Below, piece by piece: positions 39,003 through 63,936 of a stretch of DNA of 64,000 nt. This DNA is from Somniosus microcephalus. Taxonomy: Eukaryota. The position numbers were made by a program, and so were the translations under genes. How positions within the stretch are numbered: the stretch's first letter is position 1; each line of letters opens with the position of its first letter. Under the pieces are notes generated by a model. The model ran no database searches. It worked only from the letters and a program-made list of their open reading frames with translations, and was not told where the DNA came from. The stretch covers positions 30,690,001-30,754,000 of the forward strand of contig CM126234.1 of assembly GCA_052327205.1 (NCBI GenBank), written 5' to 3'.

Positions 39003-39074
39003 TCATCTTACGCTGAGCTGTGCAAATCCAATGAGTTTGGTTTCGTCTGGGTTGTAGCCCTCACAGCCAGAGAC
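39003..39074 (-). CDS. STK39-like: Terminal coding exon [27 protein letters not shown]
   Basis: tcacag| acceptor; TGA at 39005-39003; matches [28 protein letters not shown]. Confidence 0.94.
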   Translation of the reverse strand, partial: VSGCEGYNPDETKLIGFAQLSVR

Positions 39075-63000: not shown

Positions 63001-63936
63001 GGGCAGTGCTGAGGGAGCGCCGCACTGTCGGAGGGGCAGTGCTGAGGGAGCGCCGCACTGTCGGAGGGGCAGTACTGAGGGAGCGCTGCACTGTCGGAGG
63101 GGCAGTGCTGAGGGAGCGCCACACTGTCGGAGGGGCAGTGCTGAGGGAGCGCCGCACTGTCGGAGGGGCAGTGCTGAGGGAACGCCGCACTGTCGGAGGG
63201 GCAGTGCTGAGGGAGTGCTGCACTGTCGGAGGGGCAGTGCTGAGGGAGTGCTGCACTGTCGGAAGGGCCATCTTTCGGATGAGACGTTAAACCGAGGCCC
63301 TGTCTGCTCTCTCAGGTGGACGTGAAAGATCCCATGGCTCTATTTGAAGAAGAGCAGTTCTCCCCGGTCTTGGCTAATATTTATCCCTCAATCACCATAA
63401 CAAAAACAGATTATCTGCTCATTATCTCATTGCTGTTTTTGGGAGCTTACTGTGCACAAATTGGCTGCTGCGTTTCCCACACTACAACAGTGACTCCACT
63501 TCAAAAAGTACTTCATTGGCAGTAAAGCGCTTTGGGACGTCCTGAGGTGGTGAAAGGCGCTATAGAAATGCAAGTCTTTCTCTTTCACCATAAGATACTG
63601 ACCAGGGTTGGTGTTGTCTCCTCTGTATGAGGGAGTAGAGGATACTTCGATAAGATTATCTGCAGCACCCCATTAAAGGACGAGATGCAACATTTCCTGT
63701 TTGTTTAAAGTTACTTTGTAAAGCCCCTCGGGATTGGCACTGCTGCCTGACCCCCCACTCAATGTGGGTTAGAGATGAAGAATTGAAAGCCCACCTGTGT
63801 ATCTGTCCATTCCTGTGCAGATAATCCAAGCCCTCCAACACCTCTTTTAGAACTGTGGCTATTACCGGCTCATCCAGCACGCCAGTCTTGTGTTCATTGT
63901 TGCTGACTGTCCTCCTGATTATATCCAACATGGAGC
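39003..63936 (-). CDS. STK39-like: SPAK/OSR1-family Ste20 (GCK-VI) Ser/Thr kinase, STK39-like, 5'-partial multi-exon CDS
   Basis: 13 confident exons with GT-AG boundaries. Phases are consistent except across the unresolved linker between 46174 and 41220. They encode [40 protein letters not shown] and the CCT domain ending [15 protein letters not shown]. The first exons lie beyond 64000. Confidence 0.93.
39511..39575 (-). CDS. STK39-like: CCT exon [22 protein letters not shown]
   Basis: ctttag| acceptor and ctg|gtaagg donor; 65 bp. Confidence 0.93.
40086..40154 (-). CDS. STK39-like: CCT exon [23 protein letters not shown]
   Basis: ctgcag| acceptor and g|gtaagt donor; 69 bp. Confidence 0.94.
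40563..40615 (-). CDS. STK39-like: CCT exon [17 protein letters not shown]
   Basis: cacag| acceptor and g|gtaagt donor; 53 bp; [13 protein letters not shown] is identical to SPAK/OSR1. Confidence 0.95.
41153..41220 (-). CDS. STK39-like: Exon [23 protein letters not shown] (start of CCT domain)
   Basis: gacag| acceptor and ag|gtaagg donor; LVLRLR motif. Confidence 0.9.
41996..42059 (-). CDS. STK39-like: Candidate linker exon [21 protein letters not shown]
   Basis: tttcag| acceptor and gag|gtaaaa donor; ends in phase 0, matching the next exon. It requires an unidentified upstream small exon ending in phase 2. Confidence 0.5.
42300..43003 (+). mobile_element. L2-clade LINE 3' fragment
   Basis: [13 protein letters not shown]...[13 protein letters not shown]...GGRAF, plus tail ggcgctctataaatacaagttgttg. 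Confidence 0.9.
44172..44354. other. Assembly gap (183 N)
   Basis: Run of N. Confidence 1.
44870..45395 (+). mobile_element. CR1 LINE 3' fragment
   Basis: [22 protein letters not shown] and IWNALPE...FKRELDKYL. Confidence 0.9.
46174..46296 (-). CDS. STK39-like: Exon [41 protein letters not shown] (S-motif, WEW motif)
   Basis: ttag| acceptor and acc|gtgagt donor; 123 bp; matches SPAK [24 protein letters not shown]. Confidence 0.93.
47100..47439. mobile_element. Tc1/mariner-pogo (Tigger-like) MITE, second copy
   Basis: TA-flanked; 22-bp TIR CAGGAAACTTTGTGYTATCCGG with 1 mismatch. Confidence 0.88.
47475..47905 (-). mobile_element. DeuSINE, diverged
   Basis: Reverse-complement match to the SINE consensus. 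Confidence 0.75.
48831..48896 (-). CDS. STK39-like: Exon [22 protein letters not shown]
   Basis: tttcag| acceptor and aag|gtaaag donor; 66 bp; aligns with SPAK NREYLIEKLL. Confidence 0.9.
49940..50323 (-). mobile_element. CR1 (HER1-like) 3' fragment
   Basis: [41 protein letters not shown]. Confidence 0.9.
50734..50894. mobile_element. Palindromic MITE (PIF/Harbinger-like)
   Basis: About 50-bp TIRs GGGGGT(C/A)ATTTTAACTTTTGGT...; 3-bp TSD AGT. Related remnants at about 59775-59920 and 61832-61956. Confidence 0.8.
51142..51832 (-). mobile_element. Penelope-like retroelement 3' fragment: GIY-YIG endonuclease plus terminal hammerhead
   Basis: CKRRRCNTC...[40 protein letters not shown]...[18 protein letters not shown]; 8-bp TSD CTGTCTGT (51134-51141 and 51833-51840). 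Confidence 0.92.
51203..51244 (-). ncRNA. Minimal type I hammerhead ribozyme (Penelope-associated), intact core
   Basis: Minus strand agtt-CTGATGA-a-gggtc tca gacct-GAAA-cgtt-aact. Confidence 0.8.
52212..52260 (-). CDS. STK39-like: Kinase exon [16 protein letters not shown]
   Basis: tttcag| acceptor and aag|gtaagc donor; 49 bp. Confidence 0.93.
52515..52720 (-). mobile_element. LTR-like element (TATAAATA, ATTAAA), inverted relative of 53468-53690
   Basis: Reverse complement aligns by eye with 53480-53670. Confidence 0.6.
53468..53690 (+). mobile_element. LTR-like element
   Basis: Starts TGTTAT; TATA-like gtatcaata; ATTAAA; homologous to 52515-52720. Confidence 0.6.
53793..53926 (-). CDS. 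STK39-like: Kinase exon [45 protein letters not shown]
   Basis: ctag| acceptor and ag|gtgtgt donor; 134 bp. Confidence 0.95.
54430..54896. repeat. 34-bp minisatellite, about 13 copies (tatcYctgattctgtgYgtaactcactccccagR)
   Basis: Period 34 (ggta at 54617 and 54651). Confidence 0.95.
54931..55032 (-). CDS. STK39-like: Kinase exon [34 protein letters not shown]
   Basis: ttgcag| acceptor and aag|gtggga donor; 102 bp. Confidence 0.95.
55183..55312 (-). mobile_element. Penelope-type terminal fragment with a micro-inverted hammerhead core
   Basis: Homologous to 51150-51240; 55285-55302 is the reverse complement of the expected gtttcaggtcgatgacct. Confidence 0.75.
55620..57320. repeat. C-rich, CpG-rich variable-unit minisatellite built on cgcgagacccc(cgccc/cactcc)
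   Basis: About 1.7 kb of cgagacccc motifs with higher-order duplications; source of spurious Gly/Arg/Pro-rich ORFs. Confidence 0.95.
57640..57960 (-). mobile_element. tRNA-derived SINE with CR1-type tail
   Basis: Minus-strand head ...ggttatattactggaccagtaatccagag...gagttcaaattcc; tail gcaataaattctggtcttgccagtgatgcccacatcc-polyA. Confidence 0.65.
58036..58776. repeat. 33-bp tandem array, about 22 copies (cagtactgagggagcgccgcactgtcggagggg)
   Basis: Gives 11-aa periodic ORFs ([11 protein letters not shown]). Confidence 0.95.
58777..59056 (+). mobile_element. Solo LTR, 280 bp
   Basis: TG...CA termini; perfect 5-bp TSD CGCCG (58772-58776 and 59057-59061); TATAAATA at 58897. Confidence 0.85.
59999..60108 (-). 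CDS. STK39-like: Kinase exon [37 protein letters not shown] (activation loop)
   Basis: ttag| acceptor and cag|gtaacc donor; 110 bp; WNK-target T-loop Thr conserved. Confidence 0.96.
60440..60945 (+). mobile_element. L2-clade LINE 3' fragment
   Basis: [31 protein letters not shown]...[16 protein letters not shown]. Confidence 0.9.
61084..61384 (-). mobile_element. RTE-clade LINE 3' end nested in an older SINE
   Basis: Minus strand ...[27 protein letters not shown] (C2H2 tail of RTE ORF); 9-bp TSD AATGGCCAT (61075-61083 and 61385-61393). Confidence 0.8.
62329..62384 (-). CDS. STK39-like: Kinase exon [18 protein letters not shown]
   Basis: ttgcag| acceptor and g|gtaggt donor; 56 bp; catalytic loop. 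Confidence 0.95.
62645..63585 (+). mobile_element. DeuSINE with internal 33-bp array
   Basis: Head tggctcagtgggtagc, then the array, then the Deu core and L2-like tail. Confidence 0.87.
62707..63268. repeat. 33-bp tandem array, about 17 copies, same unit as 58036-58776
   Basis: Direct inspection; 11-aa periodic ORFs. Confidence 0.95.
63795..63936 (-). CDS. STK39-like: Kinase exon [48 protein letters not shown]
   Basis: tttcag| acceptor and ag|gtgggc donor; 142 bp; strong match to STK39/OXSR1 subdomains V-VIa. Confidence 0.95.

Follow-up and report, generated by a model that had tools for sequence, protein, structure and literature searches.

The window, a 64,000-nucleotide stretch of a Somniosus microcephalus chromosome (C33), carries LIMA1 exons on the forward strand and, tail-to-tail with them on the reverse strand, a gene for a kinase of the SPAK/OSR1 (STK39/OXSR1) family, which lies between LIMA1 and CERS5. 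Fourteen exons of the kinase run from 63936 down to 39003, every one with an AG acceptor (14/14) and all internal ones with a GT donor (13/13), and joined they form a single open frame of 392 codons with a TGA stop at 39005-39003. This bears out the first-pass annotation of an intact-looking gene convergent with LIMA1, and all eight of the motifs it had named were found in place on the reverse strand. Three further 5' exons, the ATG included, lie 2.6, 4.5 and 37 kb past the window end and complete a protein of 490 amino acids. The features are as follows, with exons 1 to 3, which lie outside the window, in window-equivalent coordinates:

22840..22971, +, LIMA1 (EPLIN) LIM-domain exon
24073..25110, +, final coding exon of LIMA1; tail-to-tail with the kinase
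36500..39002, -, likely 3' untranslated region of the kinase, at least 2.5 kb, from a related organism's contigs; runs to the end of the stretch examined
39003..39074, -, kinase exon 17, coding end and stop codon
39511..39575, -, kinase exon 16, CCT
40086..40154, -, kinase exon 15, CCT; leucine equivalent to OSR1 Leu473
40563..40615, -, kinase exon 14, CCT
41153..41220, -, kinase exon 13, CCT docking domain begins
46174..46296, -, kinase exon 12, S-motif serine and WEW motif
48003..48071, -, kinase exon 11, 69 nt
48831..48896, -, kinase exon 10, linker specific to the clade
52212..52260, -, kinase exon 9, kinase-domain end
53793..53926, -, kinase exon 8; paralogous exons: intact in OXSR1 on C7, broken in the STK39 remnant on C4
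54931..55032, -, kinase exon 7
59999..60108, -, kinase exon 6, DFG and activation loop including the WNK-site threonine
62329..62384, -, kinase exon 5, catalytic loop
63795..63936, -, kinase exon 4
66692-66584, -, kinase exon 3 (outside the window)
68614-68502, -, kinase exon 2 (outside the window)
101176-101104, -, kinase exon 1 (outside the window)

The kinase gene is intact and spliced: contigs of a related organism (two runs, presumed to be RNA) join all four introns of the stretch examined, at the predicted sites. Of two runs of raw RNA, whose species label was matched by DNA runs, one yielded no reads and the other 24, and neither showed a splice joint. The forward-strand gene is LIMA1, as first annotated, and not XIRP2: the best solved-structure match of its LIM exon is EPLIN (E 1e-19; LIMD2, 5e-14), and Xin repeats were found only on C4, C7 and C280, with none on C33. 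At 32967-33194 a B3GALT-like match, weak at 33 bits, outscored 100 shuffled queries, was lost without composition correction and has no DNA or Pfam support.

Domain architecture and diagnostic residues

The protein has an N-terminal STE20 kinase domain, in which K47, HRD (145-147) and DFG (165-167) are kept, and a CCT domain (PF12202, found on the close ortholog P0226); the best PDB matches of both are SPAK/OSR1 structures. T186 of the activation loop and the serines of a GSSG S-motif align with the WNK sites of SPAK, a correspondence of residue presence only. The WEW motif is also kept, and L437 aligns with OSR1 Leu473 (counted from residue 434), the leucine of the RFxV/I pocket. Only 17 residues stand ahead of the kinase domain, and the Pro/Ala-rich N-terminal extension of STK39 is absent. 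Within the cartilaginous-fish clade described below, the CCT domains are 91-98% identical, chimaera included, and rays have altered basic residues preceding the S-motif. On the side of the predicted substrates, the genome yielded four NKCC/NCC-type N-termini, and RFxV/I is present in each; one stingray NKCC1 is reported to be without SPAK/OSR1 sites (PMC3857534).

At 22 conserved sites separating STK39 from OXSR1, the window kinase agrees with STK39 at 13, with OXSR1 at 7 and with neither at 2. Further, STK39 of coelacanth, bichir and turtle has a 23-residue segment at the position of the one encoded by exon 11, and the shark OXSR1 proteins compared lack it. The protein had initially been described as a mosaic of SPAK and OSR1 residues; the motifs are indeed present, but the mosaic is mostly an effect of a mammal-only comparison, as fish STK39 likewise has GVLDE, DVKAG and ADIWS, and the shark OXSR1 motifs read GVLEE and DLKAG.

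Mirrored neighbourhoods and the canonical STK39 site

On C33 the order is LIMA1(+), kinase(-), CERS5(+), with the kinase and CERS5 head-to-head; on C4 it is XIRP2(+), B3GALT1(+), STK39 remnant(-), CERS6(+), with the remnant and CERS6 head-to-head. CERS5 was found just beyond the window, where it had been expected; PDB scores for CERS5 and CERS6 were tied, and a comparison between the exons on C33 and on C4 decided the identity. The LIMA1/XIRP2 and CERS5/CERS6 pairs occur in the same order on both chromosomes, which also share Hox9 and hedgehog pairs, and the LIMA1-CERS5 segment mirrors XIRP2-STK39-CERS6 in order and orientation, upholding the proposal of a distinct third paralog. The HoxC and HoxD clusters have been grouped as a pair (PMC10972751). 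C280 was considered as an independent haplotype and set aside, since it matches C4 at 100% identity over its first 10 kb and adds nothing. A search of 160 kb of C24 for a fourth family copy near LIMD2 was negative: none of 17 exon profiles stood out clearly from the reversed control.

The STK39 site on C4 contains just five decayed exon remnants: 5 of the 17 exon profiles match there, in order and on the reverse strand, above the reversed control. The exon 8 remnant carries a frameshift and a stop, and those of exons 9 and 10 score low (5.6 and 10.0 bits). Exons 1-7 are missing from gap-free sequence, with no N gap in 400 kb; from the exon 8 remnant to CERS6 exon 1 there are only 14.7 kb without N, whereas ATG and exon 8 of the window gene lie 47 kb apart. 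At 12 sites separating STK39 from the new clade, the remnant is STK39-like at 8 and new-clade-like at 1; its DNA identity to the C33 and C7 exons is non-discriminating (61-76% against 58-79%). Three single-exon searches of the genome returned intact family exons on C33 and C7 only, and the C7 gene is OXSR1, a separate locus beside XIRP1 as anticipated, which falls in the OXSR1 clade and is not the site of the window kinase.

Thus, the genome holds two intact family members only, the window kinase and OXSR1, and STK39 survives in it only as broken exon remnants, a loss seen at the DNA level in one assembly. An intact STK39 beside XIRP2/CERS6 had been expected, and the window gene had been suggested as an effector additional to STK39 and OXSR1. 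Only the remnant lies there, so the suggestion of an additional effector is not supported: the window gene is the genome's only intact SPAK-like gene.

Phyletic spread and competing readings

An unrooted tree resolved three clades with supports of 100/100, 100/99 and 100/98. The window kinase falls in a separate clade (100/100) with proteins of 21 sharks, rays and one chimaera, and lies outside the 20 bony-vertebrate STK39 rows, a placement that in an unrooted tree cannot show sisterhood. The protein searches covered the best 120 of 1704, 1494 and 2302 matches, with queries other than canonical STK39. Among the matches listed, 51 of 452 retrieved proteins are assigned to the new clade, every one of them labelled as coming from a cartilaginous fish, and none of the 89 cartilaginous-fish proteins is assigned to STK39. 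The earlier description of the gene as absent from mammals was therefore too narrow, as no bony vertebrate appears in the clade among the matches listed.

These sequence patterns are best read as the outcome of a whole-genome duplication followed by reciprocal loss. We consider it quite probable that the window gene and STK39 are sisters from genome duplication, that cartilaginous fishes kept the window gene and bony vertebrates likely lost it, and that it likely stands in for the remnant STK39, with a WNK to NKCC/NCC mechanism and X linkage as its predicted corollaries. Synteny and the clade support the ohnolog status first proposed, though not a third kinase on top of two others. If losses were reciprocal in this way, shark "SPAK" is likely a hidden paralog.

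As the tree is unrooted, it does not by itself tell whether the new clade is in fact a fast-evolving STK39 of sharks. A shark-lineage STK39 copy might have been moved or converted into the LIMA1-CERS5 interval after the bony-fish split, with decay of the original, leaving a long-branch SPAK co-ortholog. The STK39-like state of 13/22 diagnostic sites and the lack of bony vertebrate members among the matches listed would fit this; the remnant (88 residues) and the new clade share one site, and an AU test fails to reject their grouping in unrooted trees. However, the best trees place the remnant with bony STK39, with support of 99 in one (AU p 0.52 for the alternative) and 98/97 in the other (p 0.077), the 8 to 1 split of the 12 separating sites favours STK39, and a multi-exon gene would have had to insert between the LIMA1 and CERS5 paralogs, exactly at the paralogous site and with matching orientation. 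The window gene is the genome's only intact SPAK-like gene, as a translocated ortholog would be, but the canonical-site remnant argues against simple translocation, and we regard this history as unlikely.

A smaller chance attaches to an ancient ohnolog with changed function, whose own linker and CCT changes would direct it to other partners or tissues, OXSR1 alone having taken over the SPAK transport role. The stem branch is long, the CCT is 66-71% identical to full-length STK39/OXSR1 rows that are themselves 77% alike, the basic residues before the S-motif are altered in rays, and reads were few in the two RNA runs; against this, the kinase domain is 85-90% identical to most STK39/OXSR1 rows, the main docking residue is kept and the CCT is highly conserved within the clade, as far as the chimaera. 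Slighter still is the chance that the window gene adds an extra kinase to an intact pair of STK39 and OXSR1, the breakage of STK39 being peculiar to the assembly, individual or species. The DNA-level view does come from one assembly and the protein lists from the best 120 matches, but the five exons carry several independent lesions, exons 1-7 are gone from 400 kb without an N gap, the STK39 class is empty of cartilaginous-fish proteins among the matches listed, and a third intact locus was absent in all three exon searches.

Predicted role, likely X linkage and known systems

Under reciprocal loss, WNK kinases would dock via their RFxV/I motifs on the CCT domain of the window kinase, and its activation-loop threonine and S-motif serine would be their phosphorylation sites. 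In turn the window kinase would bind NKCC1, NKCC2 and NCC at their RFxV/I motifs and phosphorylate these transporters, with higher salt transport as the result; OXSR1 would partly share this role.

C33 has a Hox9 gene at 38.1 Mb and a hedgehog gene at 26.8 Mb, and C4 also has one of each; we take the C33 genes to be HoxC9 and Dhh, by elimination and on known features. As elasmobranch HoxC and Dhh are X-linked (PMC10620051, PMC12318234), these genes mark C33 as the likely elasmobranch X. Chromosome record sizes lie within published X ranges in 8 of 11 species and outside them in the horn shark and two skates. The gene names had no match in the supplements of PMC12318234 (one file), PMC11406177 (two), PMC10620051 (one) and PMC9396271 (four); the X gene tables of bioRxiv 2025.02.26.637739 may list the gene. 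Males would carry a single dose, and with the incomplete dosage compensation of the elasmobranch X (PMC12318234) a sex difference is predicted.

The wider proposition, to which we give even chances, is that all living cartilaginous fishes are without a working STK39, that the SPAK arm of their WNK salt signalling runs via a different ohnolog, X-linked in sharks and rays and, under less than full dosage compensation, higher in females than in males, and that the rectal-gland NKCC1 kinase would be OXSR1 or the window gene, never true SPAK. The shark rectal gland is a classic model of NKCC1 phosphorylation, and which kinase acts there becomes a direct question. SPAK and OSR1 are taken to make up all of the WNK effector kinases of vertebrates; a third ohnolog replacing STK39 in cartilaginous fishes would change that family history, and shark "SPAK" data and database names would point to a different gene. 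CCT docking is a drug target in hypertension, and the window kinase offers a natural variant for its study. Our literature search found no description of the clade as a separate ohnolog; a killifish kinase, "SPAK2", is reportedly the subject of a paper.

Among known systems, SPAK/STK39 of bony vertebrates (PDB 5d9h, 5dbx, 7o86) is the best PDB match for both domains (kinase domain 87-90%, CCT 68-71% identical) and shares the neighbourhood pattern and the 23-residue segment before the S-motif. In contrast to it, the window gene falls in a separate clade, lies at LIMA1-CERS5 on a HoxC-type chromosome rather than at XIRP2-B3GALT1-CERS6, has a short N-terminus without the Pro/Ala-rich box and has linker and CCT residues of its own. 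OSR1/OXSR1 (PDB 2vwi, 3dak, 2v3s) resembles it in the kinase domain (84-87% identical), the short N-terminus and the HKFF kinase-domain end, but is a separate C7 gene beside XIRP1, and the window kinase follows it at only 7/22 diagnostic sites. The new-clade database records of cartilaginous fishes represent this same gene (one clade; the four compared are 91-98% identical in both domains) under automatic names only, some of them OSR1-like; the Callorhinchus record omits "-like". Hidden paralogy by reciprocal loss after vertebrate genome duplication, reported for Nodal/Lefty and globins, involves differential retention of duplicates between cartilaginous and bony fishes, as here; peculiar to the present case are the remnants that mark the site of the lost copy and the likely X linkage of the retained one.

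Gene structure and transcripts

The eight motifs by which the first-pass annotation had recognized the kinase all lie on the minus strand where it placed them. Reading the DNA directly, we found 14 exons in the window, between 63936 and 39003; their splice sites are canonical, and they form one open frame of 392 codons that ends in a stop. Three further exons, including the start codon, were found in the 200 kb examined outside the window, giving a gene of 17 exons over 62 kb that encodes 490 amino acids. A masked stretch (44172-44354) is intronic, and tandem arrays occupy kinase introns at four places:

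Tandem arrays in introns of the kinase gene
54423-54895, 34-bp unit, 14 copies
55619-57319, GC-rich, 1.7 kb
58036-58776, 33-bp unit, 22.6 copies
62706-63268, 33-bp unit, 17.1 copies

In contigs from two runs of a related organism, presumed to be RNA, all four kinase introns in 36500-41400 are spliced at the predicted sites; these presumed transcripts continue into exon 12 and reach 2.5 kb beyond the stop. Over the same interval, two raw RNA runs bearing the species label of the best-matching DNA runs yielded 0 and 24 reads, none of which showed a splice joint.

Family members in this genome and across vertebrates

The window corresponds to G000:C33:30690001-30754000. Searches of the 6.4-Gb genome with single-exon queries (exons 8 and 6, and exon 4 from coelacanth STK39) recovered intact SPAK/OSR1-family exons only on the window's contig, C33, and on C7, as did a full-length search under a stricter filter. 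We identify the C7 gene as OXSR1 from its exon 8, which five shark clusters named OSR1 share without any difference, and from its tail-to-tail arrangement with a Xin-repeat gene; the separate OXSR1 locus beside XIRP1 that the first-pass annotation sought is therefore present. The pair occupies 63.63-63.66 Mb of C7, not C5, whose Hox9 and hedgehog genes we take to be HoxA9 and Shh. Downstream of the C7 Xin repeats there is also a match resembling a LIM exon.

The third match of the exon 8 search was a broken exon 8 on C4. Within 400 kb of this contig without N, we observed B3GALT1 (plus strand, 276.052 Mb), kinase remnants (minus strand) and CERS6 exon 1 (276.194 Mb); XIRP2 (275.77-275.83 Mb) lies upstream. 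The remnants are exons 17, 14, 10, 9 and 8, in gene order and all on the minus strand. Five of the 17 exon profiles exceeded a reversed control (44.2, 23.7, 12.5, 10.0 and 5.6 bits, versus control maxima of 1.7 for those exons and 4.5 for any exon), while the other 12 found no match above it in the 400 kb. The lesions comprise a deletion, a frameshift and a stop in exon 8, a deletion in exon 9 and truncation of exons 10 and 17; since only 14.7 kb separates exon 8 from CERS6, exons 1-7 are gone. The site thus has what we take to be the human order, XIRP2-B3GALT1-STK39-CERS6, with a dead STK39.

With the C-terminal half of the chimaera protein as query, 11 cartilaginous-fish clusters (60-100% identity) topped the matches listed; bony STK39/OSR1 came next with 180 bits or lower, down from 212. 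Ten of these clusters cover at least 21 species (11 sharks, 9 batoids, 1 chimaera), counted from 55 of 56 members, some with partial species names. Among the matches listed, the 452 retrieved proteins comprise 51 of the new clade, all from cartilaginous fish, 248 of the STK39 class and 153 of the OXSR1 class (38 from cartilaginous fish); none of the 89 proteins named as cartilaginous fish falls in the STK39 class, some Logan rows being nameless. These sequences, the best 120 of 1704, 1494 and 2302 matches to queries other than canonical STK39, make a reciprocal loss between cartilaginous and bony lineages likely. New-clade proteins already stand in RefSeq under automatic 'SPAK-like' names. The Callorhinchus protein P0019 is labelled plain SPAK, yet groups in the new clade, and its name is likely an orthology mislabel.

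Synteny, phylogeny and the age of the duplication

The plus-strand neighbour is, as first proposed, LIMA1 rather than XIRP2: its LIM exon has EPLIN/LIMA1 as top solved-structure match, and C33 holds no Xin repeats. CERS5, expected just past the window, was also located, head-to-head with the kinase and starting about 36 kb upstream of its ATG. Its homeodomain exon ties in score with LASS6 and matches the LASS5 structure at three residues; the C4 gene is LASS6-like at two of these and LASS5-like at none, which identifies them as CERS5 and CERS6, respectively. We read the paralogs of the last LIMA1 exon as XIRP2 on C4, XIRP1 on C7 and LIMD2 on C24, and take the one on C280 to be a second copy of the C4 piece. 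C280 repeats the XIRP2-B3GALT1 segment of C4, with L114 (G000:C280:1-10000) 100% identical over the 10 kb compared, and is likely an assembly duplicate. Between LIMA1 and the kinase, a weak B3GALT1-like match (32967-33194, plus strand, 33 bits, E 0.002) sits where a dead B3GALT1 ohnolog would be expected; it exceeded 100 shuffled queries, yet was lost under other search settings. Galactosyltransferase (PF01762) copies are greatly expanded at many sites on C36, many with stops.

In an unrooted tree of 48 rows, 47 of them hand-picked from the retrieved proteins, the window gene and 12 cartilaginous-fish proteins form a clade (support 100/100) beside an OXSR1 clade spanning cartilaginous and bony lineages (100/99) and an STK39 clade of bony vertebrates only (100/98). 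As this topology is also compatible with the new clade being simply shark STK39, the C4 remnant is the deciding evidence. Over its 88 residues, it agrees with STK39 at 8 of 12 discriminating sites, with the new clade at 1 and with neither at 3, and it groups with STK39 both in a quick tree of 49 rows (99) and under a mixture model with 21 rows (98/97). AU tests did not reject a forced grouping of remnant and new clade (p 0.52 with 49 rows, 0.077 with 21), and the age of the duplication therefore rests mainly on synteny. C33 and C4 share four paralog pairs, LIMA1/XIRP2, CERS5/CERS6, Hox9 and hedgehog; for LIMA1/XIRP2 and CERS5/CERS6, both order and strand relative to the kinase agree between the two contigs. 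In PMC7269912, HoxD is assigned to an alpha segment and HoxC to a beta segment, but the authors state that they are unable to pair them; PMC10972751 groups the Hox clusters A/B and C/D. The latter grouping, STK39-like residues at 13 of 22 diagnostic sites and a 23-residue segment common to the window gene and STK39 all fit a sister relationship of the two. Of the originally proposed extra ohnolog, the ohnology is supported, mainly by synteny with C4; its being additional to STK39 is not, since STK39 there is dead.

Probable X linkage and proposed function

Both Hox9 and hedgehog genes occur on C5, C4 and C33, and Hox9 also on C24. By elimination and known features, we take the C33 pair to be HoxC9 (likely) and Dhh. 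The intact Gly/Ala-rich Hox9 first exon (L107, G000:C33:38.116 Mb) lies close to the C33 end, 7.4 Mb from the kinase gene, which is likely outside the small pseudoautosomal end. PMC10620051 reports that the shark X carries HoxC and shows homology with a portion of human chromosome 12, and PMC12318234 places Dhh on the X in five species, with incomplete dosage compensation and a liver sex bias of about 1.5-fold, described as female-biased. Ortholog record lengths agree with the X size ranges given in bioRxiv 2025.02.26.637739 (16.4-28.8 and 45.0-73.0 Mb) for 8 of 11 species, four of them at range ends (16.39, 16.41, 28.81 and 73.08 Mb); the exceptions are the horn shark, at 37.8 Mb, and two skates, at 8.1 and 8.7 Mb. 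The window gene is likely X-linked.

Compared with ten STK39/OXSR1 rows, identity is 84-90% in the kinase domain and 60-71% in the CCT. The catalytic, activation-loop, S-motif and WEW residues are kept, as is the equivalent of Leu473, and all four NKCC/NCC-type N-termini found in the genome bear an RFxV/I motif. According to PMC4512625, the CCT binds RFxV/I of WNKs and transporters and requires that leucine. The kinase would be expected to be activated by WNK, to phosphorylate the transporters and to cover for the lost SPAK. The ray and skate orthologs P0006 and P0248 carry substitutions at the basic positions immediately preceding the S-motif serine, a sequence change that could affect WNK phosphorylation. 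Besides the NKCC1-like gene on C1, the genome has another N-terminal exon of NKCC1-like type (L116, G000:C13:39.79 Mb), which bears two RFxV motifs and possibly marks another retained ohnolog.

We found no description of a third SPAK/OSR1 paralog or of STK39 loss in sharks in the literature covered, which leaves out most subscription journals, and term searches of PMC12496175 and PMC9396271 gave no matches. The window gene is a real, new SPAK/OSR1-family member that probably takes the place of STK39, instead of adding to it, and is probably X-linked, a reading in which our confidence is fairly high; the probable replacement and X linkage are what this analysis adds to the ohnolog first proposed.
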